Positions 137 to 32,450 of a DNA stretch of 64,000 nt are shown piece by piece. The DNA is from Escherichia coli (GTDB taxonomy: Bacteria > Pseudomonadota > Gammaproteobacteria > Enterobacterales > Enterobacteriaceae): NCBI RefSeq assembly GCF_003019035.1, contig NZ_CP027447.1; one strand, 5' to 3'. The position numbers were made by a program, and so were the translations under genes. Position 1 is the stretch's first letter, and each line of letters opens with the position of its first letter. The notes below the pieces were generated by a model. It had not been told where the DNA came from. It worked only from the letters and a program-made list of their open reading frames with translations, and made no database searches.

Positions 137-213
137 GGAGCGGTAGTTCAGTCGGTTAGAATACCTGCCTGTCACGCAGGGGGTCGCGGGTTCGAGTCCC
201 GTCCGTTCCGCCA
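137..213 (+). tRNA. aspV: tRNA-Asp (anticodon GTC)
   Basis: 77-nt sequence GGAGCGGTAGTTCAGTCGGTTAGAATACCTGCCTGTCACGCAGGGGGTCGCGGGTTCGAGTCCCGTCCGTTCCGCCA with cloverleaf-compatible arms, GTC anticodon context (CTGTCAC) and encoded 3' CCA; matches the E. coli tRNA-Asp sequence from memory. Confidence 0.93.
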
Positions 214-3392: not shown

Positions 3393-3415
3393 GATAATCT
3401 CCTTTAATTAAATAA

Positions 3416-4768: not shown

Positions 4769-4778
4769 CCCTGCCTCC

Positions 4779-8303: not shown

Positions 8304-8321
8304 AAAAACTCCTGTTCTCTT

Positions 8322-9737: not shown

Positions 9738-9741
9738 ATTT

Positions 9742-13241: not shown

Positions 13242-13249
13242 AAACGTCC

Positions 13250-14011
13250 TTATCGAAGTAATTTGTTTAGCTGGTGCAGGATGTCCTGCGTCTGGCTGTC
13301 CAGCCGCAACAGATAGAACAGGTAAAACAACGCCAGCACGACAACGCCACCACAAAAAATATGTTTAATGGTCAGGTGACTGATGAGCTGATAACGCCCG
13401 CCCTGGTTTTTTTTGTCCTGGTGTAACAGCGGGAAAGGGGCATCGCCGCGTAGTTTATGCAGGACGTGGTACAGGCGGCGGTAGATCTGCTCAAATTCTC
13501 CCTGATCCTGTGCTGCCACTTTGTAGCGCCCGCGAAATCCCAGAGAAAAACAGAGCCAGAGAAATTCCAGCAGATCCTGGTAACGTTTGGGTTCACGGAT
13601 CAGGCGCTCCAGCAGGATGAAAACTTTCTCGCCACCCCAGGCTTCGTTGTGGAAATGGACCAGCAATGACTGCTTGATCCACTCGTTCTTGTTCGACCAG
13701 CCGTTACCGAGCGCCGCTTCATCAATAAACGTGCAGAGGATGTAGCGAAACGAGATAATCACGCCCGGTTCGTAGCCCTGCTCCTGAAGCAGTTGCTCCA
13801 CGGCCTGAACATCCGTCACCACCTGAGCAAAAAGATGCTCCGGCATCGTCTGGCTGTTCATGGTTGAAAGGCGCATCACCATACCGAGGAGCGGCGTGGC
13901 TGCGTCGATCATCGGATTCAGGCTGTTGCCACGAAGCGCGAGATGGTAGTCGCGCTGGCCTTTTTCGTCGTGTCCGATAAATGGTGGCAGAGACAGTGAC
14001 TCCTCATCCAT
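13250..14011 (-). CDS. tssL: T6SS membrane protein TssL (DotU-like), no periplasmic peptidoglycan-binding extension
   Basis: 253-aa ORF, cytoplasmic DotU-like domain and a single C-terminal TM helix (VVVLALFYLFYLL) ending shortly after. Confidence 0.8.
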   Translation of the reverse strand: MDEESLSLPPFIGHDEKGQRDYHLALRGNSLNPMIDAATPLLGMVMRLSTMNSQTMPEHLFAQVVTDVQAVEQLLQEQGYEPGVIISFRYILCTFIDEAALGNGWSNKNEWIKQSLLVHFHNEAWGGEKVFILLERLIREPKRYQDLLEFLWLCFSLGFRGRYKVAAQDQGEFEQIYRRLYHVLHKLRGDAPFPLLHQDKKNQGGRYQLISHLTIKHIFCGGVVVLALFYLFYLLRLDSQTQDILHQLNKLLR

Positions 14012-14015
14012 CGTC

Positions 14016-15347
14016 TTACCCTCTTATAGCCCACAGTTGCATATTCAGGTCCGGAAAACTGCCGGAGACATGCAGTGCAACGGCCCCGGCGGCAGCTATT
14101 TCAGCCCAGGCCTGGCCGCTTTTGTCGAGTTCGAAATAGCTGAACCCGGAATGGTAGGGAAGCTGGCGGGGAGCCACCATCAGTGCACGCAGAGGAATAC
14201 CGGGGATCTGCACACTGACCATATTGCGGATTTTTTCCGGCGAGGAAATTTTCGACTGCTGGATAAACTGGCGCTGGATCTGATCGACCGGCATGTTTGC
14301 CGCCACGGCCAGCACAAAGGTGGCAGATTGCAGCAGTTCTGTGTCATGGATATCGGCCTGCCAGATACCGTCACGCAGATGCAGCGGCAGATTGACGGCT
14401 CTTGGCGACAGTACGGTATGCAGCGCCCGTTTGACTTCCGGTAACAGCGTTTTAAATGTTTTGGTCAGGTCATGATGATCATACACATCAAGCGGGCAGG
14501 GCAGGCGCGACGGCTCGGTAAAGGTCATCAGTTCACCCAGCAACCCCGCAAGATCAAGGTAGAAATCTTCCGGGTGGAGCTGGGATCGACGAGCGCGATG
14601 GGTAAACCGGGTCTGGTTACGGTTAAGTAACTGCAACATCATAAATTCCGCCACATCCGCGATGCCGCTCTGCGCCGGAGAGCCAATGCGGTTTGCCAGA
14701 TCGCTTGCCCGTCCGCCAATGGCCCCCTGTACCTCTTTGAGATAAACACGCAGTTTCTTACTGACCTGAATATTCTGGCAGGAGGGGATAAAATCGTCAT
14801 CCAGCGTCAGGGAGCCGTCGGCATGGCGATCGCTGATACGGCAAAGCGGGAGCGTAATATAGGCGCTCATATCTTCTGCACCGCTCATAATGCGCGGCGT
14901 AAGTTGACCCAGCGTCAGTGTTCGCGCGTCACCTTCTTCTGAATGCAAATCCCGGACATCGGCATAATTCAGCCGGTAACGCCCGATTCGCCGCCCGTCG
15001 CTGATTTCATTTCTCACATCACTGGCGACCGGCAGAGCGAGGTAAATATTGCGGCTTCTTTCGTCCGGAAAATTTTGCGGGTGCAGCGGATCGGGCAGTG
15101 CGTCCTGGTCGGGGATAGAAAAGACGGTGCCGTCGGGCAGTGTGCCTGACGCGCTGTCAATCATGATCTTACCCTGCGCCAGCAGTTCATTGTTGAGGGT
15201 GAGTTCGGTAAATCCCCAGGATAAATCATTCATGGCCCGGAAACGCTGGTTATCCAGGTAGTCGTTGTAACGCTGCTGTTGCTGGAAATGGTGTGGGCGC
15301 ATCAGCATCCCTTCCTGCCACATCACCTTGTTGCGGGTGGTTGCCAT
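14016..15347 (-). CDS. tssK: T6SS baseplate protein TssK
   Basis: 443-aa ORF starting MATTRNKVMWQEGMLMRPHHFQQ, characteristic TssK N-terminus; operon position. Confidence 0.8.
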   Translation of the reverse strand: MATTRNKVMWQEGMLMRPHHFQQQQRYNDYLDNQRFRAMNDLSWGFTELTLNNELLAQGKIMIDSASGTLPDGTVFSIPDQDALPDPLHPQNFPDERSRNIYLALPVASDVRNEISDGRRIGRYRLNYADVRDLHSEEGDARTLTLGQLTPRIMSGAEDMSAYITLPLCRISDRHADGSLTLDDDFIPSCQNIQVSKKLRVYLKEVQGAIGGRASDLANRIGSPAQSGIADVAEFMMLQLLNRNQTRFTHRARRSQLHPEDFYLDLAGLLGELMTFTEPSRLPCPLDVYDHHDLTKTFKTLLPEVKRALHTVLSPRAVNLPLHLRDGIWQADIHDTELLQSATFVLAVAANMPVDQIQRQFIQQSKISSPEKIRNMVSVQIPGIPLRALMVAPRQLPYHSGFSYFELDKSGQAWAEIAAAGAVALHVSGSFPDLNMQLWAIRG

Positions 15348-15349
15348 AA

Positions 15350-15874
15350 TTATTCATCCTCTTTTTTCATTTCGATGCTGCTTTGACGTACATGCACCAG
15401 CAGGCGGTAATGGTGGCCGGTTCCTTCCACCGTCTCGATTTGTTTCCATTCAGTGGCCTGGTCATCGGAGAAATAGGCCACGACACCAATAAACTGCGTT
15501 TTCTCATCCAGCTTTACCGGCGGCAGGGTTTTGATGGTGTCCGGCAACAGGTTGAAATCCTGGTGGTCGATATAGTTTTTACCCAGCACATCCGGTAGCG
15601 GCGTACTGGCTATCTGGTCATAGTCGGCTGCCAGCAATTTTGAGTCGTCAGTCAGGTACACCAGTTGCACATCCACGGCGGCTGATTCACCCTCCGCATT
15701 GGTATTGGTGTCCGGTTCGGTCAGCAGGGTGACGGTTATTTCCGAAGGTTGCTCCTTCAGGCTCCCGACCTGGATATCCGGGTTTTTGATCACCTCACTG
15801 ATTTTTTTCGCCGTTTCGCAGCCGGTTAATATGACGCACATCAGCACGCAGGCCAGAAACGCCTTCCTGTTCAT
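15350..15874 (-). CDS. tssJ: T6SS outer-membrane lipoprotein TssJ
   Basis: 174-aa ORF with lipoprotein signal (CVILTGCETA). Confidence 0.8.
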   Translation of the reverse strand: MNRKAFLACVLMCVILTGCETAKKISEVIKNPDIQVGSLKEQPSEITVTLLTEPDTNTNAEGESAAVDVQLVYLTDDSKLLAADYDQIASTPLPDVLGKNYIDHQDFNLLPDTIKTLPPVKLDEKTQFIGVVAYFSDDQATEWKQIETVEGTGHHYRLLVHVRQSSIEMKKEDE

Positions 15875-17172
15875 GCTTCCGGCTCCCGCTGTTTTTCACG
15901 AAGCACCCGGTCATAGACCTGGGCGTAGACCTCGTTAAACAGCATCTCAAACCCCTGCTGGCGATCGGAGGCCAGCTCTTCGTAATAATGGCTGTACATT
16001 TGCCATGCTCCGGCATCATCCAGCGGCTGGCGCAGTTCATGGCTGCGGCGGTACTGCACAAAGCGGCGCAGCAGATTTTGTGGTGAGAAGGCGTCCAGCA
16101 GGACACGAAGCGACTCCACAATCGCCGCCCGGTTAGCTTCTTCGTGGTGGCGGACATTGCGCAGGCTTTCACTGACAGCGGCGGGAGCCGCCAGATGTAC
16201 CGGACTTTTACCTTCGGCAAACATCACGTCGAGCGCGGTGGCGTAATCCATGTTCAGGCGCAGCGGGTTATCTTCCAGCGGGCGCAAATGTTTGTCTGAG
16301 AGGCTGTTACGCTGCTGCTGCAAATCAAGCAGACCTTTTATTGCGGCCTGTAACGTGCGTCCGGCCTCCTCCAGAAAATCATCCGCATCGTCGGAATTGC
16401 TCACGGTAAGCGAGCCGCCAAGACCGCGCAGTAAGGGGGTGACCGCAAGGTGGCGTTGCGCCATTTCTGCCACAGAGACGTCATCATTACGCTCGCCGGG
16501 GCTGGCATAAATGGGCGGCAGATCCATAAACGGCGTATTGATCCCCCCATTACTTGCCGGATCGGACAGCGGTGCCGATGGCCGGACAGCCGCAATGCCT
16601 GAAAGCGGATCGCCCGCGGTAATCAGGCTTTCGGACTGAAGTGCCTGGAGTGGATCGGCAGAAAAACCGTTTACCACGGTGTCTGCAAGCTGATGCCGGT
16701 GAGTCATTCCCGGATAGTGTGGCGCACCCTCCGTTGACAGCAGGGTATCCGTGAGCATATCGCGATTGGTGACGATGGTTTCGGGAGTGGCCATTTCCTC
16801 ATCGTAATGGGGGATATCTCCCCGGTTCAGATGAACCCTCACCATCAGACGCCCTATCTGGATCTCATCGCCCTGGCGCAGCTGTATCAGGTCTGATGTT
16901 GCTGTGACTTTTGCCTGGTTCAGCCACAGTTGTGCCGTCTGCGGGCGCAGACAAAATGTGCCATCGTGCAGGATAACGGTAAAGGCCTGAGCCGGAATGC
17001 TCTGCTGACGATCCTGTACCGACCAGTGGCATTCGGGGCCATGGCCGACATTTCCCTGCTGCGTGAACAGACAGCGCGCCGCCCGCCCGCTTTCCAGCTC
17101 ACTGCCGTTAATGACCTGCAATGAAAGCGTCTGTAGTTTCTCTTCCGGCATATTCTGCTCCGTGATTATCAT
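15871..17172 (-). CDS. tagH: FHA-domain T6SS accessory protein (TagH/Fha-like)
   Basis: 433-aa ORF; N-terminal region with FHA-like pattern (GR...G...DG.F.L...LWLNQ...L.QGDEIQIGR); operon position between tssG and tssJ. Confidence 0.5.
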   Translation of the reverse strand: MIITEQNMPEEKLQTLSLQVINGSELESGRAARCLFTQQGNVGHGPECHWSVQDRQQSIPAQAFTVILHDGTFCLRPQTAQLWLNQAKVTATSDLIQLRQGDEIQIGRLMVRVHLNRGDIPHYDEEMATPETIVTNRDMLTDTLLSTEGAPHYPGMTHRHQLADTVVNGFSADPLQALQSESLITAGDPLSGIAAVRPSAPLSDPASNGGINTPFMDLPPIYASPGERNDDVSVAEMAQRHLAVTPLLRGLGGSLTVSNSDDADDFLEEAGRTLQAAIKGLLDLQQQRNSLSDKHLRPLEDNPLRLNMDYATALDVMFAEGKSPVHLAAPAAVSESLRNVRHHEEANRAAIVESLRVLLDAFSPQNLLRRFVQYRRSHELRQPLDDAGAWQMYSHYYEELASDRQQGFEMLFNEVYAQVYDRVLREKQREPEA

Positions 17173-17175
17173 AAT

Positions 17176-18264
17176 TTACGACCGTACCCTGATGGTGACT
17201 GAGGGTCGTTCTTCCGGTGTGCCGAGGAAGCTGGTCCAGCCCAGCAGCGCACTTTTGTTATCGCCCAGGCGCATTGCGCCCACCTGCTCCGGTGCCAGCC
17301 CCAGATGTAAGTCCCAGGCAAGCTGATCGCGCAGGATGAAGGACACAAACATCGTCAGTGGCAGGAAGTTTTCGCCGGACGGCAGAAAAGAGAGGAGCTG
17401 TTTTCGGGTCAGGCTGGTAATACTGAGCTGGAATTTTCCGCTGAGATCGGGCACCCGTGTACCCAGAACAAAGTTGCCCAGTACCGATCTTCCGGCCAGT
17501 TTTTCGCCATTTTTAAGGGAATAGCTCCCCAGGCTGTTTTGCTGATCCGGTTCAATATCCACCTTGCGACGTTGCCAGTTTTGCAGCGTCACGTCTGACA
17601 AGTCAAAACAGTGTGACACCAGGCCGCAGATGATTTCCGGGGATCGTCCCGGATTTGCCAGGATCCCGGAATACGCCAGCATTTTGCTGTGATTAATCGC
17701 CAGCTTATCGCGAAGCTGGCGGTGGCCCAGCCCGACAAGGGAGTACATGCGCTGCGAGAACGCATCCACACCGCCGTTACGAAAACTGATGTGATAGCGG
17801 TACTTACGCCAGATATGCCAGACAAACTGGGTCAGGCGGTGGCTGAACATATCCAGAAAATCGCCTACCGGACTTTGTTCATGTACCGCTTTCCAGGCCA
17901 GGTGATCCAGGTAATAACCGGGGAGAGGCGACTGGCTCCCCTGTAACCCCATAAAGGTGGTGGTCATCCTGAATGCCCCTGACGTATCCCGTTTCAGCCC
18001 ACTGATATCACTGCACGGGAAGGCAAGGCTGGCATCGGCGCTGAAACGCAGGGTTTCCTGTGCCGGATCATCGCGCAGGGATAATTCCGGTGTCCCCTTT
18101 TCACCCTGTGCCAGGCGGTGCAACAGCTCCGCCATCGCAAAAAAATTGTAAGAGCAGGCGTTATGGAAAACCTGTGCCAGCGGATCATTCTGCTCTTTAT
18201 CTGCCGGGGGATGTCCCGGACTCAGATAAGAGGATGCTGCCCGGTTCTTTCCGTCCATTTCCAT
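17176..18264 (-). CDS. tssG: T6SS baseplate protein TssG
   Basis: 362-aa ORF directly downstream of tssF with short overlap, typical tssF-tssG coupling. Confidence 0.75.
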   Translation of the reverse strand: MEMDGKNRAASSYLSPGHPPADKEQNDPLAQVFHNACSYNFFAMAELLHRLAQGEKGTPELSLRDDPAQETLRFSADASLAFPCSDISGLKRDTSGAFRMTTTFMGLQGSQSPLPGYYLDHLAWKAVHEQSPVGDFLDMFSHRLTQFVWHIWRKYRYHISFRNGGVDAFSQRMYSLVGLGHRQLRDKLAINHSKMLAYSGILANPGRSPEIICGLVSHCFDLSDVTLQNWQRRKVDIEPDQQNSLGSYSLKNGEKLAGRSVLGNFVLGTRVPDLSGKFQLSITSLTRKQLLSFLPSGENFLPLTMFVSFILRDQLAWDLHLGLAPEQVGAMRLGDNKSALLGWTSFLGTPEERPSVTIRVRS

Positions 18265-20072
18265 GTCTCCTGGCTTTCTGTGTTCACAACGGTCAGCATG
18301 TGGAATGAGTTAACGCTGGCGTACAGCGACAGAAAATGCGAAAGCACCGTACCGAGCAGATACATTTCCCCTTCACAGACAAACGGCTCCGGGTGCAGAT
18401 ACAGCGTGGAGGCCAGCCCCCGGACGGGAATGCCCGTAAACAGGCGATCGACAGGGCGGGTCTCCAGACGCTCAATGGCATCCAGCTTTTGTTGTGACAG
18501 CCGCGCCGTCTGCGGATGATGGATTGCGTGGCGATCAAAGTTGGCGATGACCTGCTTCAGCGCGTCCGTATCTAGTAATGACAGATAATTCAGGTTCATG
18601 GCGGAGAGCAGGGACCAGTGCAGGCTGCCATCAATGACCGGCCAGAGCGGTTGCGTCGGGCGGGTAATGTTGCGAAATGAAGCAACAGCCGCATTTTTAC
18701 CGGTTGTGCCGGTGATATCGCCGGAACGAATTTGTGACGGAAGCTCACGGTTGGTACAGGTCAGCGATACCGAAACCACTTCATTACTGAGCAGCGATTC
18801 GTCTGACGGATAACTGCCATCAGCATGTATAAAAGCAAGGGTATGATCAAAGCCGCGATGGAACAGGGATGTTTTGGTCCGGTGATGCCAGTACACCACT
18901 TCCCGCTTCCGGCTGTATTCCATCTGATGGCTGAAACTTTCAAAGGCAGGCCACTGGCGCGCGGCCTGCGTCGAAACAGGACGCCCCAGATCTTTTTTCC
19001 TGAACATATCCTGCACCTGGCTCACCACGCCGTTAACGGAAAAGACATCGTAATGTTCCGGATAGTGGCGGCTGGGAACCAGCGGATAGTCTGCCCGCCG
19101 GTTGTCCAGCGTGATGGCTTCTGCATGGTGGATAAATAAATTAATGGCAGGTGCGCAATACAGGCGCAGAGAATCGCGGCGCAGCCGGATGTCCACGGGC
19201 AATGGGCGCGAAAAACGCAGTTGCAGGGTAAAGGATTCAGCCTGCAATCCGTCAGGCAACGCCGGGCAACCACAAAGATCAAAAAAGAGAAACGCATCCG
19301 GGTAACAGAAATACTCCTGAAGGATCCGGTAGCCGCTGTGGACGTTTTTCGGCCAGGGCAGCATGGCATCCTGCGGCTCAAAACCGACAGCTTTCAGCAT
19401 AAACTCAGGCAGGCGAATATGCTGTTCACCCACAGTCAGGTCGGCACCCTGCAAGTATTCACAGAACCATAAATAAAGCTGGTCACGGGTATAGTTGTCG
19501 TCATTGCCGAGCCAGAAGCGAAGTTTGTTCAGATCCAGCGTGCGGAAGTCCGTTCCCGGTGCGACCGAAAAGGTGATGTTGATAACACCATTACGGGTCG
19601 TACTGCGGTTTTCAATCTGCTCCAGGCGAACGGGCAGCAGCCAGATATCCCGGCAGAGGGTGAAGGTACAGGGAGGCGGCTCCTCCTTTTTAGCATCGGA
19701 GGGCAGCACTTCATCGACTCTAATTTCCCCGGCGTTGGTTGTAAACTGCTCATTACGGGGGATTAACACCGGCACAGAAGACTTATCCATATCCGGCGTA
19801 TATTCAATAAGGGTCATTGCCGGAACCGGACGCAGGTAATTAGGCCACAGCATCTTAATAAGCCCGTGCGTCAGTTCTGGGAATTCATCCTCAATTTTCT
19901 GGCGGAGATTGCCGGTAAGAAAAGCCACGCCTTCCAGCAGGCGTTCAATATCCGGATCCGCATCTTTTTCGGCCAGGAAGCGGGCCAGATGGGGTTTTTC
20001 CGTTGCCAGCAGCTTGCTGAGCTGGCGCAGGTAATCGAGTTCTTCCCGGAAATAGCGTTCTTCAAATTCCAT
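18222..20072 (-). CDS. tssF: T6SS baseplate protein TssF
   Basis: 616-aa ORF starting MEFEERYFREELDYLRQL, typical TssF N-terminus. Confidence 0.8.
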   Translation of the reverse strand: MEFEERYFREELDYLRQLSKLLATEKPHLARFLAEKDADPDIERLLEGVAFLTGNLRQKIEDEFPELTHGLIKMLWPNYLRPVPAMTLIEYTPDMDKSSVPVLIPRNEQFTTNAGEIRVDEVLPSDAKKEEPPPCTFTLCRDIWLLPVRLEQIENRSTTRNGVINITFSVAPGTDFRTLDLNKLRFWLGNDDNYTRDQLYLWFCEYLQGADLTVGEQHIRLPEFMLKAVGFEPQDAMLPWPKNVHSGYRILQEYFCYPDAFLFFDLCGCPALPDGLQAESFTLQLRFSRPLPVDIRLRRDSLRLYCAPAINLFIHHAEAITLDNRRADYPLVPSRHYPEHYDVFSVNGVVSQVQDMFRKKDLGRPVSTQAARQWPAFESFSHQMEYSRKREVVYWHHRTKTSLFHRGFDHTLAFIHADGSYPSDESLLSNEVVSVSLTCTNRELPSQIRSGDITGTTGKNAAVASFRNITRPTQPLWPVIDGSLHWSLLSAMNLNYLSLLDTDALKQVIANFDRHAIHHPQTARLSQQKLDAIERLETRPVDRLFTGIPVRGLASTLYLHPEPFVCEGEMYLLGTVLSHFLSLYASVNSFHMLTVVNTESQETWKWTERTGQHPLI

Positions 20073-20075
20073 CTG

Positions 20076-20489
20076 TCAGTCCACCCGGTAATGCTGGCTG
20101 CCATTCGGTGCCATATCAAATTCAAGCACTTCATGCGTTTCGTTAAATGTCACCCAGGCTGTAATATGAAACGTCATATCCAGCGGGCTGGCGGCGGATG
20201 AAACCACAGCCTGCACTTCAGCGTGTGAGATCCGGGGTTCATAGCGTTCTATACATTGCGCGATGGCCCGACTCATTGATTGGCGGAAGTTTTCAGCCCC
20301 TTCCGGTTCATCAATGCCCAGTTCAGGCGCACCCCGGCAACTACCGGACCGGGTATTAAGAATGTTTCGCAGGTTCTGGCGAATGGACTGCCTGAGCGCA
20401 TGAATACTGCTTCCCTGCCGGTTTCTGGCCGGTGAGGCTTCCATACGCTCAAAAAGAGAACCTGTGGTTCTTTCCCGATCCGGTATCAT
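20076..20489 (-). CDS. tssE: T6SS baseplate protein TssE (gp25-like)
   Basis: 137-aa ORF between tssC and tssF; size and position typical of TssE. Confidence 0.8.
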   Translation of the reverse strand: MIPDRERTTGSLFERMEASPARNRQGSSIHALRQSIRQNLRNILNTRSGSCRGAPELGIDEPEGAENFRQSMSRAIAQCIERYEPRISHAEVQAVVSSAASPLDMTFHITAWVTFNETHEVLEFDMAPNGSQHYRVD

Positions 20490-20495
20490 GGCGTG

Positions 20496-21971
20496 TTACT
20501 CCCTGTCTAACCGGCCAACCAGGGAAAGCTCAAAGTTTGCCCCCATAAATTTAAAATGGGGCCGCACGCTCAGCGCGACCTGGTACCAGCCGGGTTCGCC
20601 TTCCACATCCATAACCTCAACTTTGGCAGCGCGCAGAGGTTTACGGCTGCGCACGTCCGCAGGCGGGTTTTCCTGGTCGGCAACATACTGACGGATCCAG
20701 GTATTAAGCTCTCTTTCTAAGTCGCTCCTTTCTTTCCATGACCCCAGTTGTTCACGCTGCAACACCTTGATGTAGTGCGCTAACCGGTTGATGATGAAGA
20801 GATAAGGAAGCTGCGTACCCAGCTTATAGTTGGTTTCTGCGTCTTTGCCCGGAAAGTGCTTCGGTTTTTGTACCGAGTTTGCAGAGAAAAAGGCTGCATT
20901 ATCAGAGTCTTTACGCATGGTAAGGGTGATAAAACCCTCTTCAGCCAGTTCAAATTCGCGGCGATCGGTGACCAGCACCTCGGTTGGGATTTTGGCCTGA
21001 ATCTGACCCATCGTTTCGAACAGATGCACCGGCAGATCTTTCACTGCGCCGCCGCTTTGCGGACCGATGATATTTGGACACCAGCGGTATTTGGCAAAAC
21101 TGTCTGCGACATTGCACGCCAGCATCCAGGCCGTATTACCCCACAGATAATCTTCGTGGTTCCGGCTGACATCTTCGTGATAGTTAAAGTTCTTAACAGG
21201 GTTATCTGTTGGTGAATAAGGCTGGCGAAGCAGGAAGCGGGGTGCCGTAAGCCCTAAATAGCGCGAATCTTCCGAGTCACGCAGGGCGCGCCATTTGGTG
21301 TAGGCCGGACCTTCAAAGATGGCATAAAGATCTTTGATATTAGGCAGTTCGGTCCACGAGTTCAGCCCCATAAATTCCGGGGAAACGGAGGACAGGAACG
21401 GTGCGTGCGCCATTGCGCCCACGGCACTGACGTATTGCAGCAGTTTCATGTCAGGCGCGGTATTTTTGAACTCATAAGCGCCCAGCACGGCAGCGATGGG
21501 TTCACCGCCAAACTGTCCGAAACCGGACGAATAAACGTGCTTATAAAATCCGGACTGAATAATTTCTGGCGCAAACTCAAAGTCTTCCAGAAGTTCCTGC
21601 TTGGTGACATGAAGCACGTTGACCTTGATGTTTTCACGGAAATCAACGCGATCCACCATTGTTTTCAGTGAGCGCCAGAACGACTCGACCTGCTGAAAGG
21701 CAGGCGCATGGATGATGACATCCATCTGGCGGCTGATGCGTTCATCAATATCTGCAATCATGCTGTCCACGGCCAGTTTATTGACCGGTTCGGCAGATGC
21801 AGTGGATTGCAGGATGCTGGCAATAAAGGCTGTCACACCCTGGCGGGCAACGTCATAACCTTCCGAACCGGGCTGAATACGGGTCTGTGCCATGATTTGA
21901 TCAAGCAGCGACGATGCCTGCTCAGGCTGCCCGGCATGACTGGAAACGAGTTCCTCTTCCTGTAAAGACAT
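20496..21971 (-). CDS. tssC: T6SS sheath large subunit TssC (VipB)
   Basis: 491-aa ORF; conserved sheath protein, follows tssB. Confidence 0.9.
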   Translation of the reverse strand: MSLQEEELVSSHAGQPEQASSLLDQIMAQTRIQPGSEGYDVARQGVTAFIASILQSTASAEPVNKLAVDSMIADIDERISRQMDVIIHAPAFQQVESFWRSLKTMVDRVDFRENIKVNVLHVTKQELLEDFEFAPEIIQSGFYKHVYSSGFGQFGGEPIAAVLGAYEFKNTAPDMKLLQYVSAVGAMAHAPFLSSVSPEFMGLNSWTELPNIKDLYAIFEGPAYTKWRALRDSEDSRYLGLTAPRFLLRQPYSPTDNPVKNFNYHEDVSRNHEDYLWGNTAWMLACNVADSFAKYRWCPNIIGPQSGGAVKDLPVHLFETMGQIQAKIPTEVLVTDRREFELAEEGFITLTMRKDSDNAAFFSANSVQKPKHFPGKDAETNYKLGTQLPYLFIINRLAHYIKVLQREQLGSWKERSDLERELNTWIRQYVADQENPPADVRSRKPLRAAKVEVMDVEGEPGWYQVALSVRPHFKFMGANFELSLVGRLDRE

Positions 21972-22280
21972 ACTGAAAATCCTTCTGTTTTAGCTGTGTT
22001 TCTGAAACCGGCTTTTCGCCATCAGTGAAGTACGCGCTGCCAGTGCGACGCGCTCTGCTGAAACTCACAAAAATGGATAATCTCATCCAATAGATCACTG
22101 ATACGGCGATCCAGTGTTGTAATCAGCGCAGCCACACCATCCTGGTTGATTTCAACGGACGGGCTGAAACATACCTGGTAAACCACCTGCAGAATGTCTG
22201 CAACAGAGAGGTGGTATGTCCCGGAGATATTTTTGTGTGCCGTCATGCCTGGATAACCCTGTTTAATGAAATAGTGGTGG

Positions 22281-22781
22281 TTATTTATTGCTCACCCGGC
22301 CGATTTCTTTGAGCAACTGCTCGCGGGACTCCTCATTTTCCAACAATGCCTGGAGCTGGGTACGGAATGCCGGAAGGTTACCCATCGGCCCCTTCAGTGC
22401 AGTCAGTGCTTCACGCAGTTCCAGCAATTTATTCACTTCCGGAACCTGCCGGGCCACGCTATCTGGTGAAAAATCATCCAGTGATTTGATATTCAGCGCC
22501 ACATTCAGTTCATCGTCTGTTGTGCTTCCCTTCAGCGTGGCGGGGACAGTAAAATTGAGGCCAATGGCTGCTTCAGCCATCACTGCACCGAAATTGTGCT
22601 TGTTAACGGAAACTGCCTGACGTTCATCCAGTGGGGATGTTTCCTGCGTATTTCCGGTATCGCCGACAACGAGCATGTTAAGCGGAAGTTCCACTTCAGC
22701 CGTCTGGCCATCTGTTTTTGGGACATACGATATATTAATACGCTCGCGAGGCGCGACGCTGCCTTCAAATTTTTTGCTCAT
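22281..22781 (-). CDS. tssB: T6SS sheath small subunit TssB (VipA)
   Basis: 166-aa ORF starting MSKKFEGSVAPRERINISYVPKTDGQ; first gene of the minus-strand operon. Confidence 0.9.
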   Translation of the reverse strand: MSKKFEGSVAPRERINISYVPKTDGQTAEVELPLNMLVVGDTGNTQETSPLDERQAVSVNKHNFGAVMAEAAIGLNFTVPATLKGSTTDDELNVALNIKSLDDFSPDSVARQVPEVNKLLELREALTALKGPMGNLPAFRTQLQALLENEESREQLLKEIGRVSNK

Positions 22782-23477: not shown

Positions 23478-23996
23478 ATGCCAACACCGTGTTATATCTC
23501 CATCACTGGTCAGACCCAGGGAAATATTACTGCAGGTGCATTTACCGCTGATTCTGTCGGCAACATCTATGTGCAGGGGCACGAAGACGAGATGCTGGTG
23601 CAGGAATTCCTGCATAACGTTACTGTCCCGACCGATCCTCAGTCCGGCCAGCCTGCGGGTCAGCGTGCTCACAAGCCGTTCATTTTTACCGTGGCGCTGA
23701 ACAAAGCTGTTCCGCTGATGTACAACGCACTGGCCTCCGGCGAAATGCTGCCAACCACTGAACTTCACTGGTGGCGTACCTCTGTGGAAGGCAAACAGGA
23801 GCATTATTTCACCACCCGCCTGACCGATTCGACGATTGTCGATATGAAACTGCATATGCCGCATTGCCAGGATCCGGCGAAACGCGAGTTCACCCAGTTG
23901 CTCGAAGTTTCACTGGCCTACCGCAAAATAGAGTGGGAACACGTCAAATCTGGCACCTCCGGTGCCGACGACTGGCGCGCACCGCTGGAAGCATAA
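23478..23996 (+). CDS. hcp: T6SS tube protein Hcp
   Basis: 172-aa ORF, RBS aaggag, Hcp-type N-terminus; followed by hairpin terminator. Confidence 0.9.
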   Translation: MPTPCYISITGQTQGNITAGAFTADSVGNIYVQGHEDEMLVQEFLHNVTVPTDPQSGQPAGQRAHKPFIFTVALNKAVPLMYNALASGEMLPTTELHWWRTSVEGKQEHYFTTRLTDSTIVDMKLHMPHCQDPAKREFTQLLEVSLAYRKIEWEHVKSGTSGADDWRAPLEA

Positions 23997-24205: not shown

Positions 24206-26314
24206 ATGTCAACCGGATTACGTTTCACGCTGGAAGTGGACGGCCTGCCACCGGACGCGTTTGCGGTGGTCTCCTTTCATCTGAACCAGTCACTCTCTTC
24301 GCTCTTTTCCCTCGATCTCTCTCTGGTCAGCCAGCAGTTTCTCTCCCTTGAATTTGCGCAGGTGCTGGACAAAATGGCCTACCTGACGGTATGGCAGGGC
24401 GATGACGTACAGCGCCGGGTGAAAGGTGTGGTGACCTGGTTTGAACTGGGGGAGAACGACAAAAACCAGATGCTGTACAGCATGAAGGTGTGCCCACCGC
24501 TGTGGCGCACAGGGCTGCGCCAGAACTTCCGTATCTTCCAGAATGAGGACATCGAAAGCATACTCGCGACGATCCTGAAAGAAAACGGGGTGACCGAGTG
24601 GAGTCCGCTGTTCAGCGAGCCGCATCCTTCCCGTGAGTTTTGTGTCCAGTACGGCGAAACCGATTACGATTTCCTGTGCCGGATGGCGGCGGAGGAAGGC
24701 ATCTTCTTTTATGAGGAGCACGCGCAAAAAAGTACCGACCAGAGCCTGGTCCTGTGCGACACCGTGCGTTATCTGCCGGAGTCCTTTGAGATCCCCTGGA
24801 ATCCGAACACCCGTACCGAGGTGAGCACCCTATGCATCAGCCAGTTCCTCTACAGCGCACAAATCCGCCCATCTTCCGTGGTGACCAAAGACTACACCTT
24901 TAAACGACCCGGCTGGGCAGGGCGTTTTGATCAGGAAGGCCAGCACCAGGATTACCAGCGCACACAGTATGAAGTGTATGACTACCCCGGACGTTTCAAG
25001 GGTGCCCACGGGCAGAACTTTGCCTGCTGGCAGATGGATGGCTGGCGAAACAACGCAGAAGTGGCGCGCGGAACAAGCCGTTCGCCGGAGATATGGCCGG
25101 GACGGCGAATTGCGCTGACGGGGCATCCGCAGGCGAACCTGAACCGGGAATGGCAGGTGGTGGCAAGTGAACTGCACGGCGAGCAGCCGCAGGCGGTGCC
25201 GGGACGCAGTGGTTCAGGTACCACGCTGAATAACCACTTTGCGGTAATACCGGCAGACAGAACATGGCGGCCACAGCCGTTGCTGAAACCGCTGGTGGAC
25301 GGCCCGCAGAGCGCCGTCGTGACGGGACCGGCAGGAGAAGAAATCTTCTGTGATGAACATGGCCGCGTGCGGGTGAAATTTAACTGGGACCGTTATAACC
25401 CGTCAAACCAGGACAGTTCATGCTGGATCCGTGTGGCACAGGCGTGGGCAGGCACCGGGTTTGGTAACCTGGCGATACCGCGTGTGGGTCAGGAGGTCAT
25501 TGTGGACTTCCTCAACGGCGATCCGGACCAGCCGATTATTATGGGGCGCACCTACCACCAGGAAAACCGCACCCCCGGCAGCCTGCCGGGAACAAAGACG
25601 CAAATGACCATTCGTTCAAAAACCTATAAGGGCAGCGGGTTTAATGAACTGAAGTTTGACGATGCGACAGGGAAAGAACAGGTCTACATCCACGCGCAGA
25701 AGAACATGAACACCGAGGTGCTGAATAACCGCACCACAGATGTGATAAACAACCATGCTGAGACCATCGGCAACAATCAGGTGATTGCGGTTACCAACAA
25801 TCAGATACAGACGGTGGGCGTTAACCAGATAGAGACGGTGGGCAGTAACCAGATCATTAAAGTGGGCTCTGTTCAGGTGGAAACGATTGGACTTGTTCGT
25901 GCGCTGACTGTGGGCGTGGCGTATCAGACGACGGTAGGTGGCATTATGAACACCTCGGTGGCCCTGATGCAGTCCTCGCAGATCGGTTTGCATAAATCGT
26001 TGATGGTCGGGCTGGGTTATGACGTCAAAGTCGGAAATAACGTTACCTTCACCGTTGGTAAAACGAAAAAGGATGATACCGGGCAGACCGCGATTTACTC
26101 CGCCGGTGAGCATCTGGAACTCTGCTGTGGTAAGGCAAGGCTGGTGCTGACTAAGGACGGACAAATTTTTCTCAACGGCACAAAAATTCATTTGCAGGGT
26201 AAGGAGCAGGTTAATGGTGACTCACTGTTGATTAACTGGAACTGTGCAGCCTCGAAATCCCCACCGAAGACCCCTGATGAAAAGCAGGATACGCCGGATA
26301 TGAGAGAGTACTGA
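24206..26314 (+). CDS. vgrG: T6SS spike protein VgrG (no C-terminal effector extension)
   Basis: 702-aa ORF, RBS ggagg; gp27/gp5-like region with repeated VxxNQ beta-helix motifs (NNQVIAVTNNQIQTVGVNQIETVGSNQIIKVGSVQ). Confidence 0.9.
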   Translation: MSTGLRFTLEVDGLPPDAFAVVSFHLNQSLSSLFSLDLSLVSQQFLSLEFAQVLDKMAYLTVWQGDDVQRRVKGVVTWFELGENDKNQMLYSMKVCPPLWRTGLRQNFRIFQNEDIESILATILKENGVTEWSPLFSEPHPSREFCVQYGETDYDFLCRMAAEEGIFFYEEHAQKSTDQSLVLCDTVRYLPESFEIPWNPNTRTEVSTLCISQFLYSAQIRPSSVVTKDYTFKRPGWAGRFDQEGQHQDYQRTQYEVYDYPGRFKGAHGQNFACWQMDGWRNNAEVARGTSRSPEIWPGRRIALTGHPQANLNREWQVVASELHGEQPQAVPGRSGSGTTLNNHFAVIPADRTWRPQPLLKPLVDGPQSAVVTGPAGEEIFCDEHGRVRVKFNWDRYNPSNQDSSCWIRVAQAWAGTGFGNLAIPRVGQEVIVDFLNGDPDQPIIMGRTYHQENRTPGSLPGTKTQMTIRSKTYKGSGFNELKFDDATGKEQVYIHAQKNMNTEVLNNRTTDVINNHAETIGNNQVIAVTNNQIQTVGVNQIETVGSNQIIKVGSVQVETIGLVRALTVGVAYQTTVGGIMNTSVALMQSSQIGLHKSLMVGLGYDVKVGNNVTFTVGKTKKDDTGQTAIYSAGEHLELCCGKARLVLTKDGQIFLNGTKIHLQGKEQVNGDSLLINWNCAASKSPPKTPDEKQDTPDMREY

Positions 26315-26380
26315 TCCCGTACCTGTTCAGTATTCAGTAACAAACAAGCATTAAAAATAAACAGAAGAAGGAATTGAATC

Positions 26381-29300
26381 ATGAGCGGAAAACCGGCGGC
26401 GCGTCAGGGAGATATGACCCAGTATGGCGGTCCCATTGTCCAGGGTTCGGCAGGTGTAAGAATTGGCGCGCCCACCGGCGTGGCCTGTTCAGTGTGCCCG
26501 GGCGGAGTCACTTCCGGCAACCCGGTAAACCCGCTGCTGGGAGCGAAGGTGCTGCCCGGTGAGACGGATGTTGCGCTGCCCGGTCCGCTGCCGTTCATTC
26601 TCTCCCGCACCTACAGCAGCTACCGGACCCGGACGCCTGCACCGGTGGGCGTTTTCGGCCCCGGCTGGAAAGCGCCTTCTGATATCCGCTTACAGCTACG
26701 TGATGACGGACTGATACTCAACGACAACGGCGGGCGGAGCATTCACTTTGAGCCGCTGCTGCCGGGGGAGGCGGTGTACAGCCGCAGCGAGTCAATGTGG
26801 CTGGTGCGTGGCGGTAAGGCAACGCAGCCGGACGGCCACACGCTGGCACGGCTGTGGGCGTCGCTGCCGCCGGATATCCGGTTAAGCCCGCATCTTTACC
26901 TGGCGACCAACAGCGCACAGGGGCCGTGGTGGATACTCGGCTGGTCAGAGCGGGTGCCGGGTACTGAGGACGTACTGCCAGCGCCGCTGCCGCCGTACCG
27001 GGTGCTTACCGGGCTGGCGGACCGCTTCGGGCAGACGCTGACGTACCGGCGTGAGGCCGCCGGTGACCTGGCCGGGGAAATCACCGGCGTGACGGACGGT
27101 GCCGGGCGGAAGTTCCGTCTGGTGCTGACCACACAGGCGCAGCGGGCGGAAGAGGCCCGTAAACAGCACACCGCTTCCTTATCTTCCCCTGACACCCCCC
27201 GCCCTCTTTCAGACTCAGCTTTCCCCGACACACTGCCCGGTACGGAATACGGCCCCGACAGGGGTATCCGCCTTTCGGCGGTGTGGCTGATGCACGACCC
27301 GGCATACCCGGAAAGCCTGCCCGGTGCGCCACTGGCGCGGTACACGTATACGGAAGCCGGTGAACTGCTGGCGGTATATGACCGCAGCAATACGCAGGTG
27401 CGCGCTTTCACGTATGACGTGCAGCACCCGGGCCGGATGGTGGGGCACCGTTATGCGGGAAGGCCGGAGATGCGCTACCGCTACGACAATACCGGGCGGG
27501 TGGTGGAGCAGCTGAACCCGGCAGGGTTAAGCTATCGCTATCTTTATGAGCAGGACCGCATCACCATCACGGACAGCCTGAACCGGCGAGAGGTGCTGCA
27601 TACAGAAGGCGGGGCCGGGCTGAAGCGGGTGGTGAAAAAAGAACTGGCGGACGGCAGCGTCACGCACAGCGGGTATGACGCGGCAGGAAGGCTCACGGCA
27701 CAGACGGACGCGGCGGGACGGCAGACAGAGTACGGTCTGAATGTGGTGTCAGGCGATATCACGGACATCACCACGCCGGACGGGCGGGAGACGAAATTTT
27801 ACTATAACGACGGGAACCAGGTGACGGCAGTGGTGTCCCCGGACGGGCTGGAGAGCCGCCGGGCGTATGATGAGCGGGACAGGCTGGTAACGGAGACATC
27901 GCGCAGTGGGGACGTCATCCGGTATGCTTATGATAATCCGCACAGTGAATTACCGGCCACGACAACAGATGCGACGGGCAGCACCCGGCAGATGACCTGG
28001 AGCCGCTACGGGCAGTTGCTGGCGTTCACCGACTGCTCGGGCTACCAGACCCGCTATGAGTACGACCGCTTCGGCCAGATGACGGCGGTCCACCGCGAGG
28101 AAGGCATCAGCCTTTACCGCCGCTATGACAACCGTGGCCGGTTAACCTCGGTGAAAGACGCACAGGCCCGTGAAACGCAGTATGAGTACAACGCCGCAGG
28201 CGACCTGACTGCCGTTATCACCCCGGATGGCAACCGGAGTGAGACACAGTACGATGGGTGGGGAAAGGCCATCAGCACCACGCAGGGCGGGCTGACGCGC
28301 AGTATGGAGTACGATGCTGCCGGACGTATCACCACGCTGACTAACGAGAACGGCAGCCACAGCGACTTTAGTTACGATGCGCTGGACCGCCTGATACAGC
28401 AGGGCGGCTTTGACGGGCGGACGCAACGTTATCATTATGACCTGACCGGAAAACTCACGCAGAGTGAAGATGAGGGGCTTGTCATCCTCTGGTACTACGA
28501 TGAATCGGACCGTATTACTCACCGCACGGTAAACGGTGAACCGGCAGAACAGTGGCGGTATGACGGCCACGGCTGGCTGAGAGAAATCAGCCACCTGAGC
28601 GAAGGCCACCGTGTTGCCGTCCACTATGGCTATGATAATAAAGGCCGCCTGACCAGTGAGCGCCAGACGGTGCATCACCCGGAGACGGGAGAGCTGCTCT
28701 GGCAGCATGAGACCGGACATGCGTACAACGAACAGGGGCTGGCAAACCGCGTCACGCCGGACAGTCTGCCGCCGGTGGAGTGGCTGACCTATGGTAGCGG
28801 TTATCTGGCAGGCATGAAGCTGGGCGGGACGCCGCTGCTGGAGTTCACGCGCGACCGCCTGCACCGTGAGACGGTGCGCAGCTTCGGCAGCATGGCAGGC
28901 AGTAATGCCGCATACGAACTGACCAGCACATACACCCCTGCAGGCCAGTTACAGAGTCAGCACCTGAACAGCCTGGTGTATGACCGTGACTACGGGTGGA
29001 ATGACAACGGAGACCTGGTGCGCATCAGCGGCCCGCGACAGACGCGGGAATACGGCTACAGCGCCACGGGCAGGCTGGAGAGTGTGCGCACCCTCGCACC
29101 GGACCTGGACATCCGCATCCCGTATGCCACGGACCCGGCGGGCAACCGGCTGCCGGACCCGGAGCTGCACCCGGACAGTACACTCACAGTGTGGCCGGAT
29201 AACCGCATCGCGGAGGATGCGCACTATGTCTACCGCCACGATGAATACGGCAGGCTGACGGAGAAGACGGACCGCATCCCGGCGGGTGTGATACGGACGG

Positions 29301-29989
29301 ACGACGAGCGGACCCACCACTACCACTACGACAGCCAGCACCGCCTGGTGTTCTACACGCGGATACAGCATGGCGAGCCACTGGTCGAGAGCCGCTACGT
29401 CTACGACCCGCAGGGACGGCGAATGGCGAAACGGGTATGGCGGCGGGAGCGTGACCTGACGGGGTGGATGTCGCTGTCGCGTAAACCGGAGGTGACGTGG
29501 TACGGCTGGGACGGCGACCACCTGACGACGGTGCAGACCGACAGCACACGTATCCAGACGGTATACGAGCCGGGAAGCTTCACACCGCTCATCCGCATCG
29601 AAACAGACAACGGCGAGCGGGAGAAAACGCAGCGGCGGAGCCTGGCGGAGAAGCTCCAGCAGGAAGGGAGCGAGGACGGACACGGTGTGGTGTTCCCGGC
29701 TGAACTGGTGAGGATGCTGGACAGGCTGGAGGAAGAAATCCGGGCAGACCGCGTGAGCGGTGAAAGCCGGACGTGGCTTGCACAGTGCGGGCTGGCGGTG
29801 GAGCAACTGGAAAAACAGGTGGAGCCGGAATACACGCCGGAACGCACACTGCATCTTTACCACTGCGACCATCGGGGACTGCCGCTGGCGCTTATCAGCG
29901 AAGACGGCAATACGGTGTGGAGCGCGGAGTATGATGAATGGGGAAACCTGCTTAATGAGGAGAACCCGCATCATGTGTATCAGTCATAG
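26381..29989 (+). CDS. rhs: PAAR-like/Rhs-repeat protein core, terminated by an in-frame TAG at 29987-29989
   Basis: 1202-aa ORF; N-terminal AARQGD...[18 protein letters not shown] (prePAAR/PAAR-like), long run of YD/Rhs repeats ([32 protein letters not shown]), ends ...[10 protein letters not shown] then stop. Confidence 0.85.
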
Positions 29990-30598
29990 CGTCTGCCGGG
30001 GCAGCAGCATGATGAGGAGTCGGGGCTGTATTATAACCGGAACCGGTACTACAATCCGTTGCTGGGGAGGTATATTACCCAGGATCCAATTGGGCTGGAG
30101 GGGGGATGGAACCTGTATAATTACCCACTGAATCCGATAATAAGGATGGATCCTTTGGGTTTGTATAATTTATATCAATTATTATATGATGTTTGGCATG
30201 ATGATTCATATGGAACATCATCAATTGATATTACTGGCAGTGGAGATCTAATATCATTAGGTGGTCATGCAGGACTTGGCGTTGCGTTTGCTAAAAAGAA
30301 AGGTGAAATGTTATCTGATATTTGTATTTATGCTACAGCATGCGGACATGCAGGAATTGGTGGTGGGATAAATGCGGCTATCACATATTCTGAGACCAAG
30401 TCTTTACCTACATCGGGAGTCAGCAATTCAGTAGGTGTAACGGTTGGCGGCGGAGTTGGGGGGCATTTTGCGTATACTTATGTAGTGGATGTTGATAATC
30501 CAGAATCATCGACAGAATCTGTTGGTATCGGTGCAGGTGTTGACGCTTCAGTTATGACTCTGGCTTGTAGAACGTGGCAAGAATGCTGGGTCAATTAA
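29990..30598 (+). CDS. In-frame continuation of the Rhs gene after the TAG: end of conserved core (RLPGQQ...[10 protein letters not shown]...DPLGL) plus about 145-aa glycine-rich C-terminal toxin domain of unknown activity
   Basis: Same reading frame as 26381-29989 (both start at coordinate mod 3 = 2) with a single stop between; contains the Rhs core-end motif [44 protein letters not shown], then an AT-rich Gly-rich tail ([35 protein letters not shown]). Confidence 0.6.
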
Positions 30599-30609: not shown

Positions 30610-31005
30610 ATGAAAGAATATATATTTTTAGTTTTATTTTTATTGTGTGGTTGTTCTCCAGTGGACATAGAGCCAGCTAGACAAGAAGTTAATATCTTTC
30701 GTGGTTTATATCAGACAGGAAAATACAGTGATATATATAAAATCACTTCAAGTGATTTTCAGACTGCCACATCTGAAAAAAAATTTATCGACATAATGAG
30801 CGAAGCAAAAGGAAAAGATCTTGGGACTTATAAAAAATCAACCCTTAAAACTGAAAAAATCACTCGCGGATTATTTTCAAACGATGAAATTACATTGATA
30901 TATTTCTCAGAATATTCAAAAAGAATTGTCCAAGAGGTTTTTGTGTTTAATGTTGAAGACAAAAAAGTAAAATTAAAAGGTTATAGGTATGATTCGATTA
31001 ATTAA
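30610..31005 (+). CDS. Small lipoprotein, putative cognate immunity protein for the Rhs C-terminal domain
   Basis: 131-aa ORF from ATG with RBS aggagg 5 bp upstream; signal peptide with cysteine (FLVLFLLCGCSP); AT-rich; starts 12 bp after the Rhs tip stop. Confidence 0.55.
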   Translation: MKEYIFLVLFLLCGCSPVDIEPARQEVNIFRGLYQTGKYSDIYKITSSDFQTATSEKKFIDIMSEAKGKDLGTYKKSTLKTEKITRGLFSNDEITLIYFSEYSKRIVQEVFVFNVEDKKVKLKGYRYDSIN

Positions 31006-31099
31006 ATTTTTTGATGATGACTTCAATTAGTAGAACATGTATTTTTCGATAAAAGCACCGATGACTTTTTCATGAAGTTCTACAGAGCGCGAGAAACAG

Positions 31100-32450
31100 A
31101 TGGTTCTGCGAGTCAGACGTTTGATTCAGGTTCTCAGGGGCAGATTCAGGGACAGGGAAAGATCATCAGAAGTTCACTTTTTGCACTAAATAATTCGCAT
31201 TTTATGTTTAAAAATTGAGATATTTCTCATTACCTGAAACTGTTTTTTTATTGCTTATACATGATCAAATACTCCTTACATAATTAAGGAGAACAAAATG
31301 GAACTTAAAAAATTGATGGAACATATTTCTGTTATCCCCGATTACAGACAAGCCTGGAAAGTGGAACATAAATTATCGGATATTCTACTGTTGACTATTT
31401 GTGCCGTTATTTCGGGTGCAGAAGGCTGGGAAGATATAGAGGATTTTGGGGAAACACATCTCGATTTTTTGAAGCAATATGGTGATTTTGATAATGGTAT
31501 TCCTGTTCACGATACCATTGCCAGAGTTGTATCCTGTATCAGTCCTGCAAAATTTCACGAGTGCTTTATTAACTGGATGCGTGACTGCCATTCTTCAGAT
31601 GATAAAGACGTCATCGCAATTGATGGAAAAACACTCCGGCATTCTTATGACAAGAGTCGCCGCAGGGGAGCGATTCATGTCATTAGTGCGTTCTCAACAA
31701 TGCACAGTCTGGTCATCGGACAGATCAGGACGGATGAGAAATCCAATGAGATTACAGCTATCCCTGAACTTCTTAACATGGTGGATATTAAAGGAAAAAT
31801 CATCACAACTGATGCGATGGGTTGCCAGAAAGATATAGCAGAGAAGATACAAAAACAGGGCGGTGATTATTTATTCGCTGTAAAAGGAAATCAGGGTCGG
31901 CTAAATAAAGCCTTTGAGGAAAAATTCCCACTGAAAGAATTAAATAATCCAGAACATGACAGTTACGCAATTAGTGAAAAGAGTCACGGCAGAGAAGAAA
32001 TCCGTCTTCACATTGTTTGCGATGTCCCTGATGAACTTATTGATTTCACGTTTGAATGGAAAGGTCTGAAGAAATTATGCGTGGCAGTCTCCTTTCGGTC
32101 AATAATAGCAGAACAAAAGAAAGAGCCCGAAATGACGGTCAGATATTATATCAGTTCTGCTGATTTAACCGCAGAGAAGTTCGCCACAGCAATCCGAAAC
32201 CACTGGCACGTGGAGAATAAGCTGCACTGGCGTCTGGACGTGGTAATGAATGAAGACGACTGCAAAATAAGAAGAGGAAATGCAGCAGAATTATTTTCAG
32301 GGATACGGCACATCGCTATTAATATTTTAACGAATGATAAGGTATTCAAGGCAGGGTTAAGACGTAAGATGCGAAAAGCAGCCATGGACAGAAACTACCT
32401 GGCGTCAGTCCTTGCGGGGAGCGGGCTTTCGTAATCTTGCCCTGACCCGT
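31100..32450 (+). mobile_element. H-repeat / ISAs1-family insertion sequence at the distal end of the Rhs element (boundaries approximate)
   Basis: Contains the 378-aa H-repeat-associated transposase ORF; exact inverted-repeat ends not resolved by eye. Confidence 0.45.
31298..32434 (+). CDS. ISAs1-family transposase (H-repeat-associated protein)
   Basis: 378-aa ORF, RBS aaggag; DDE-type transposase typically found 3' of rhs genes in E. coli. Confidence 0.8.

Follow-up and report, generated by a model that had tools for sequence, protein, structure and literature searches.

A very probable recent, clone-specific nonsense mutation in the Rhs effector gene of an aspV-linked type VI secretion island in Escherichia coli

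We asked why the rhs gene of an Escherichia coli type VI secretion system (T6SS) island ends at a TAG codon just before the end of its conserved core, when the same frame continues past that codon into the core terminus and a C-terminal tip. The stop could be a genuine nonsense mutation, an error of sequencing or assembly, or a codon that is read through; in addition, the segment behind it could be translated on its own. The stretch of DNA analyzed here (the window, 64,000 nucleotides) is a segment of an E. coli chromosome, and its flanks are 98–100% identical to E. coli chromosomes. An aspV-type tRNA-Asp gene (137..213, plus strand; detected with ARAGORN) forms the left edge of the T6SS island, and the same layout is found in strain 1428. 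The T6SS core gene cluster (2910..22781, minus strand) contains hcp, vasL, tssM, tssA, vasI, tssH, dotU/tssL, tssK, tssJ, tagH, tssG, tssF, tssE, tssC and tssB, with open reading frame (ORF) lengths matching the annotated genes of strain 1428. This cluster region is 100.0% identical to that of SCU-301. All 13 of the 13 core genes, together with hcp and vgrG, were full length according to ORF lengths and model matches. Directly upstream of rhs lie an hcp gene for the TssD tube protein (23478..23996, plus strand; TIGR03344, E=1.7e-61) and an intact vgrG gene for the 702-aa TssI spike (24206..26314, plus strand; TIGR03361, E=3.7e-188). Given these neighbors and the 13 core genes at 2910–22781, the rhs gene is linked to the T6SS. 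On its other side follow an intact immunity gene (30610..31005, plus strand), an IS1 transposase remnant (31027..31125, minus strand; transferred by offset from the annotation of the collinear SCU-301 locus) and the transposase of ISEc1, an ISAs1-family "H-repeat" of the kind usually found where an Rhs element ends (31298..32434, plus strand; ORF and annotation). ISEc1 is followed by yafV, ivy and fadE and then by the Flag-2 lateral-flagellar cluster.

The truncated rhs ORF (26381..29989, plus strand) begins with ATG at 26381 and runs through 1202 sense codons to the TAG at 29987..29989 (plus strand), exactly where the initial annotation had placed it. Past the TAG, the rhs frame remains open for 202 codons, which comprise 58 codons of the cut-off Rhs core end (29990..30163, plus strand) and the cut-off C-terminal tip of 144 aa (30164..30598, plus strand, including the stop codon at 30596–30598). 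Over these 202 codons the rhs frame contains 0 stops, and the other two frames contain 10 and 17. The segment after the stop matched positions 1204–1261 of the NCBIfam RHS_core model NF041261 (E=1.3e-30) and also matched TIGR03696 (E=7e-21). The NF041261 model has 1261 positions and a cut-off of 2000 bits. The truncated ORF ends at model position 1202–1203, the TAG occupies position 1203, and the segments before and after the stop are directly continuous on the model. In the intact orthologue L006, a single 1405-aa protein covers RHS_core 1–1261 with 2725 bits; the window gene does not cover the model with one continuous ORF but stops at 1203. Because the post-stop segment matches RHS_core and its frame is open despite the AT-rich DNA, we regard the two parts as one interrupted gene and not as a chance arrangement. 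The earlier proposal that a core terminus and a toxin domain continue in frame after the stop was thus borne out. Judged from its sequence, the window rhs is a member of the NF041261 family by descent, but an interrupted one.

We then compared the parts of the gene with those of characterized Rhs proteins. The N-terminus consists of a short PAAR-like stretch and a significant DUF6531 match (E=1e-18). The gene had been introduced as a PAAR/Rhs ORF; the Rhs part of this name is supported by the RHS_core match, but the PAAR part is weak, since Pfam PAAR_motif matched residues 2–29 with E=0.14 and 1.4 only, even though the letters PAAR are present. YD/RHS repeats were recognized by TIGR01643 (E=2.3e-45 in the orthologue) and by PF05593 and PF25023. 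Behind the TAG come two DPxGL motifs, DPIGL and DPLGL, with a spacing of 17 residues; an Rhs-associated core with two such motifs before a variable tip is present in the DNA but is not joined to the ORF. According to a cryo-EM and biochemical study, Photorhabdus Rhs1 has as its C-terminal plug an aspartyl protease that closes the cage and cleaves the toxin off; two DPLGL motifs are 17 residues apart, and the Asp of the second is required for toxin release (PMC8636562). The claim that the product as written would lack the autoproteolysis region and the toxin agrees with the position of both DPxGL motifs and the tip behind the TAG.

Rhs1/Tre23 of Photorhabdus laumondii (PMC8636562) and RhsA of Pseudomonas protegens (PMC8765631) have, as here, a YD shell, a plug with a DPxGL pair and a small toxin, and their genes are likewise adjacent to vgrG and followed by an immunity gene. 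Unlike these two, the window rhs has no prePAAR/TMD region, its N-terminus being the PAAR-like stretch and DUF6531 described above, and no EagR chaperone gene lies in the 66-nt gap between vgrG and rhs. The toxin tip is also unrelated to the toxins of Rhs1/Tre23 and RhsA, and only in the window are the plug and tip cut off by a stop. The closest counterparts are the NF041261 effectors of the E. coli aspV T6SS island, which include intact orthologues of 1402–1405 aa with 94–99.97% nucleotide identity in the same context and which share the tip, the immunity gene, the downstream IS1 remnant and ISEc1 with the window.

The initial annotation had suggested aligning orthologous rhs genes to find the sense codon that normally stands at this position. 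The answer was TAC (Tyr) throughout. This codon was found in the alignments with SCU-301, JNE23-011 and SC492, in loci L004, L006, L008, L009, L011, L012 and L013, and in L002–L003 and nine further loci of other lineages. Family proteins of the E. coli clade have Y immediately before RLPGQ, and those of other genera have I. Because TAC stands in every orthologue and paralogue examined, the lesion is one change, a single C>G transversion at 29989 that turned TAC (Tyr1203) into TAG. Compared with the intact E. coli orthologues, the window differs by TAC>TAG at codon 1203, which leaves its ORF 58 residues short of the core end.

A derived stop in one chromosome might still be an error, in which case the real genome would carry TAC and an intact 1405-aa Rhs. 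We therefore weighed the evidence on both sides. In favor of an error, the allele is one base off all complete genomes: an 81-bp query around the site had no perfect match among 5,426 complete E. coli genomes, and the best match had one mismatch. Repeated rhs cores may confuse assemblers, and SCU-301, the nearest complete genome, is full of assembly errors. In the protein collection, 1 contig, of 5,168,620 bp and presumably the source chromosome, encoded the exact 1202-aa product, and the TAG allele had 0 matches in the metagenome contigs scanned. Relatives were reached through a look-up of the exact immunity protein, followed by a look-up of an exact private FadE allele. The latter is a missense change in fadE (34873T, FadE A499T) that marks a subclone; at least 23 contigs (59 index blocks) encode the exact FadE T499 protein. 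P0044 (112 aa) was also tried as a marker of more TAG genomes and was rejected, as it proved to be a different, frameshifted tip.

Two draft assemblies from this search carried the TAG. The contig of L007 (GCA_043911185.1) begins at window position 29207 and is 100% identical to the window over 7,799 bp; that of L015 (GCA_041349135.1) has an end at window position 29873 and is 100% identical over 13,495 bp. Both also have the private fadE allele of the window. Three assemblies with different contig break points thus agree on the TAG; it was confirmed in two assemblies besides the source, most of the subclone's remaining contigs either ending short of the site or lying outside the set compared. 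The nearest relatives with TAC (L004, L006, L008, L009 and L013) differ from the window by 2–4 SNPs over as much as 12.4 kb, one of which is in each case 29989. Against an error speaks, first, that the same G occurs in independent drafts with differing contig ends. Second, the site lies in neither a homopolymer nor a CCWGG (Dcm) motif, where the errors of SCU-301 fall. Third, no paralogue bearing TAG exists in any complete genome that could have been mis-assembled here. We conclude that sequencing error is effectively refuted and, for practical purposes, excluded. Because the same TAG recurs in independent and otherwise identical assemblies, it appears to be an allele fixed in the subclone, and the suggestion of a genuine nonsense mutation, inherited within one clone, is upheld as far as sequence can tell. 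The "frameshifted" rhs and vgrG of SCU-301 were considered as a related case of decay and set aside, as the differences from the window coincide with CCWGG sites and homopolymers, a pattern characteristic of assembly error.

If the stop is real, the protein might nevertheless be made in full, through a suppressor tRNA encoded elsewhere or a leaky UAG-C context that leaves enough full-length Rhs functional. The downstream frame is perfectly intact, and wild-type protein would result if a suppressor inserted Tyr. With C as the next base, UAG is a relatively leaky, weak terminator in E. coli, so that trace read-through is conceivable. However, natural isolates seldom carry amber suppressors, and the basal level of read-through is far below 1%. 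Within the 64-kb window, ARAGORN found no suppressor tRNA, the tRNA-Asp being the only tRNA. The stop occurs in one subclone and is conserved in no orthologue and in none of the 5,426 complete genomes, giving no hint of programmed recoding, and the recency of the mutation explains the intact downstream frame equally well. Suppressor read-through is thus unlikely, and we rate it as extremely improbable.

The second way to preserve a function would be translation of the downstream segment alone, either from ATG 30146 as a 150-aa product (MDPLGL followed by the tip; 30146..30598, plus strand) or from TTG 30059. The in-frame ATG is located exactly before the DPLGL cleavage motif, and the exact 150-aa ORF is annotated separately on 294 contigs (697 index blocks) from many lineages. 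This count is biased, however, since gene callers report the ORF only behind a broken Rhs, and degenerate tips exist (P0044, P0050 and P0056). The sole SD-like sequence, AAGG, abuts ATG 30146 with no spacing, and TTG 30059 has no SD. A product of this kind would also lack the N-terminal region and the cage for mounting on VgrG and would therefore be undeliverable. Moreover, the lipoprotein-type immunity protein and four conserved Cys in the tip point to a toxin with a site of action outside the cytoplasm. It is unlikely as well, and in our estimate very improbable, that the tip is translated independently; that is, the initial annotation's alternative of a separate functional product found no support, and the ORF at 30146..30598 is probably not a functional gene.

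We next assessed the age of the lesion. Over 1 kb downstream, spanning the core end, tip and immunity gene, position 29989 was the sole difference from the TAC relatives. Because nothing else has changed downstream of the stop, the lesion is recent. The gene combines a sense codon in its orthologues and a derived stop with reproducibility in independent assemblies, and it is best described as a recent, clone-specific pseudogene in which the stop is the only lesion visible in the system. Taken together, there is very probably a genuine, recent and clone-specific nonsense mutation in the Rhs effector gene that follows hcp-vgrG in this aspV-linked T6SS island.

The immunity gene, annotated in orthologues as "RHS element protein dsORF-e4", encodes 131 aa in an uninterrupted ORF, as had been stated. 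An AGGAGG located 5 nt upstream of its ATG provides a strong ribosome-binding site of its own, and because of this site translation of the immunity protein would be independent of rhs. The gene has an intact A8 run at 30776–30783; an A7 allele breaks it in several other strains. The exact 131-aa protein was found on 43 contigs. It carries a lipoprotein-type signal (MKEYIFLVLFLLCGC) and matched nothing in Pfam, NCBIfam or the PDB. Within the tip, promoter-like sites were not enriched (4, compared with 5.0 expected in shuffled sequence). The tip itself is AT-rich (41% GC) and contains 16% Gly, several GxxxGxxx[GAS] motifs and four Cys, which are conserved; its homologues are confined to Rhs tips of E. 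coli, Citrobacter and Enterobacter. Searches for a function gave no Pfam, NCBIfam or PDB sequence match, apart from a spurious Pfam hit to OCRE (E=0.036). The AlphaFold model was poor (pLDDT 56), and a Foldseek search of the PDB with it was meaningless (best E=0.05, TM 0.26). The order of tip and immunity gene and the dsORF-e4 annotation are consistent with a toxin/immunity pair. The lipoprotein-type immunity protein and the four Cys might hint at a toxin that acts on the cell envelope.

Under the preferred reading of a genuine nonsense mutation, translation would end 58 residues short of the Rhs core end and yield at most a 1202-aa fragment. This fragment would comprise the N-terminal region and the YD shell and would lack most of the plug/aspartyl-protease domain, including both DPxGL motifs, as well as the 144-aa tip. 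From the known workings of Rhs proteins, the toxin would no longer be encapsulated, delivered or released. Because the immunity gene is unaltered and has its own ribosome-binding site, the clone probably keeps its protection against this toxin, a common one in E. coli. The T6SS is otherwise intact. We infer a loss of toxicity with continued immunity. A review (PMC8651079, citing Donato et al. 2020) reports that the bulky part of Rhs is needed for efficient T6SS assembly in Enterobacter cloacae, and the same review describes toxin-less PAAR-Rhs proteins. By analogy, a residual structural role of the truncated Rhs is conceivable.

To place the mutation in context, we considered the fate of this module in other strains. 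The e4-tip module is broken elsewhere in E. coli by at least six different lesions. These include a 515-nt internal deletion in rhs (L018, L020, L022 and L023), a CC insertion in rhs (L019), G7 or G5 in place of G6 at the run matching 30100–30105 (L024 and L026), a 5' truncation of rhs or an IS insertion (L021 and L027) and an orphan tip fragment (L025). Among sampled complete genomes in which the tip is joined to the core, Rhs was annotated as intact in 7 of 10 and as a pseudogene in the remaining 3. In strain 1428, vgrG, rhs and the immunity gene have all been lost through IS elements, and the T6SS core is intact.

It may be asked whether the mutation is adaptive, such that a toxin-less Rhs would mount on VgrG and support firing, save the cost of the toxin and keep immunity (a "disarmed cheater"). 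In its favor, the T6SS genes, vgrG and the immunity gene are without visible lesions, and the frequent sampling of the FadE T499 subclone indicates that the allele is not strongly deleterious. The E. cloacae findings and the toxin-less PAAR-Rhs proteins described in the review point the same way, as does the repeated inactivation of the e4-tip module in other strains. However, relaxed selection predicts recurrent loss equally well. The stop also removes most of the plug, which closes and probably stabilizes the cage (PMC8636562), and the fragment may misfold and be degraded. In addition, the immunity gene itself is broken by the A7 allele in several strains, which argues against strong selection for immunity. 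We consider an adaptive origin doubtful; the "immunity cheater" that had been proposed is plausible, but neutral recent decay fits just as well.

A broader version of this idea would hold that the e4-tip Rhs module undergoes recurrent, possibly selected and partly reversible disarmament. Here, the plug-less, toxin-less cage would still be produced and prime the T6SS, with immunity retained; elsewhere, short hypermutable tracts, G5/G6/G7 in the core end (30100–30105) and A7/A8 in the immunity gene (30776–30783), would switch toxin or immunity on and off; and gene conversion with a paralogous rhs core as donor could repair the TAG. We regard this combination as improbable.

A recent nonsense mutation in rhs, as we prefer to read the locus, has precedents. 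Pseudogenes and relics of rhs have been catalogued in E. coli and other Enterobacteriaceae (Jackson et al. 2009, PMC2935791), where premature stops or frameshifts occur with neighbors persisting, as here. Compared with the documented cases, the window lesion is very young and shows no secondary decay. In STEC O22:H8, RhsA is split by a premature stop (bioRxiv 10.1101/2024.03.05.583533); that stop separates the PAAR part from the rest, whereas the window stop falls between the cage on one side and the plug and toxin on the other. That immunity genes persist once their effector has been lost or displaced is also a known theme, as in the immunity arrays of Vibrio cholerae (PMC5361080). Orphan rhs-CT/immunity modules resemble the window in having a functional-looking immunity gene beside a toxin segment that no longer yields an effector. 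Unlike in those modules, in which the tip has no adjoining full core, the window tip is not a displaced remnant of recombination; the full core lies directly upstream in the same frame, with one stop between. The event is real but ordinary, as rhs pseudogenes are well documented and the family is well known.

These results have consequences for annotation. The T6SS-linked Rhs effector of this clone should be treated as a pseudogene with an internal stop; neither should its 1202-aa ORF enter counts of functional toxins, nor should the 150-aa ORF be taken for a separate "Rhs protein". The locus is one more data point for a faster decay of T6SS effectors than of their immunity genes and the secretion apparatus. 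Should the truncated cage support secretion, this clone would offer a naturally occurring toxin-less Rhs mutant for experimental use. The C>G change at 29989 together with FadE A499T can serve as a subclone marker. As a side observation, the paralogous rhs cores are identical around the TAG site.

The C-terminal toxin tip of the Rhs protein, which follows the in-frame TAG at 29987-29989, is also annotated as a gene in its own right. The exact 150-aa ORF, running from MDPLGL to ECWVN (window 30146-30598), was found as a separate annotated gene in 294 contigs (697 index blocks), under the name "type IV secretion protein Rhs" in some and as "hypothetical" in others. Many of these copies lie at a second locus, an rhsE-type site adjoining pptA-nhoA-narV. 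The upstream Rhs was broken in each case of a separate 150-aa ORF, every time by one out of a set of at least six different lesions (compared loci L018-L027).

Two homopolymer runs vary in length close to the tip. The first is a G6 run at 30100-30105, which codes for the two glycines of LEGGW, a stretch flanked by the two DPxGL motifs of the Rhs core end; it is G7 in CP116067 (locus L024) and G5 in CP034784 (L026), and either length results in an Rhs frameshift immediately 5' of the tip. Either real mutation by slippage or assembly error at the homopolymer could explain these variants. The second is an A8 run at 30776-30783, inside the immunity gene (30610-31005). The A7 allele, which splits this gene into ORFs of 61 and 69 aa, was present at 7 of the 16 loci checked (L019, L022, L025, L028, L030, L033 and L035). 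In 1919D62 and LT883142, the A7 allele occurs alongside an Rhs that has the same toxin tip and is annotated as intact, and an intact toxin with a split immunity gene would seem to be a self-intoxicating combination. This combination could reflect a hypermutable tract, transcriptional slippage or a toxin that is not expressed.

For window 24206-30000, the sequence compared was that of E. coli SCU-301 (CP051751; loci L001 and L005). Over 12.6 kb of compared sequence it showed 45 differences from the window, and nearly all were single-base indels or substitutions located at CCWGG (Dcm) sites and homopolymers. This pattern marks nanopore assembly errors that were left uncorrected, and it accounts for the "frameshifted" calls made by RefSeq for the vgrG and rhs genes of this strain. 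In E. coli strain 1428 (CP023366; L014), the T6SS core cluster is 99% identical to that of the window, and vgrG, rhs and the immunity gene have all been lost entirely; the interval from hcp to yafV contains fragments of IS3 and IS256 (L014 34181-35808).

Substitutions were tightly clustered at two places: 7 SNPs within a 115-bp part of the rhs core (window 27420-27535, compared with L011) and 12 SNPs in 220 bp of ISEc1 (window 31753-31972, compared with L001, an SCU-301 locus). Because the compared sequences are near-identical outside both clusters, the clusters resemble tracts of gene conversion with a paralogous copy of rhs or ISEc1 as the donor; mis-assembly of repeats is the alternative.

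At the Rhs N-terminus, the literal letters PAAR are present (window 26381-26500); the Pfam PAAR domain gave no significant match to this region (E = 0.14), and an EagR/DUF1795 chaperone gene was absent between vgrG and rhs in the window.

A private missense change at 34873 (fadE codon 499; FadE A499T) is common to the window and the TAG-bearing assemblies GCA_043911185.1 and GCA_041349135.1. At least 23 contigs carry FadE A499T, which is a handy marker for the subclone. A Flag-2 (lateral flagella) gene cluster occupies 40533-64000, and includes full-length flhA, a sigma-54 activator gene, fliF, fliI and flgE; in E. coli K-12, the Flag-2 locus is only a remnant.
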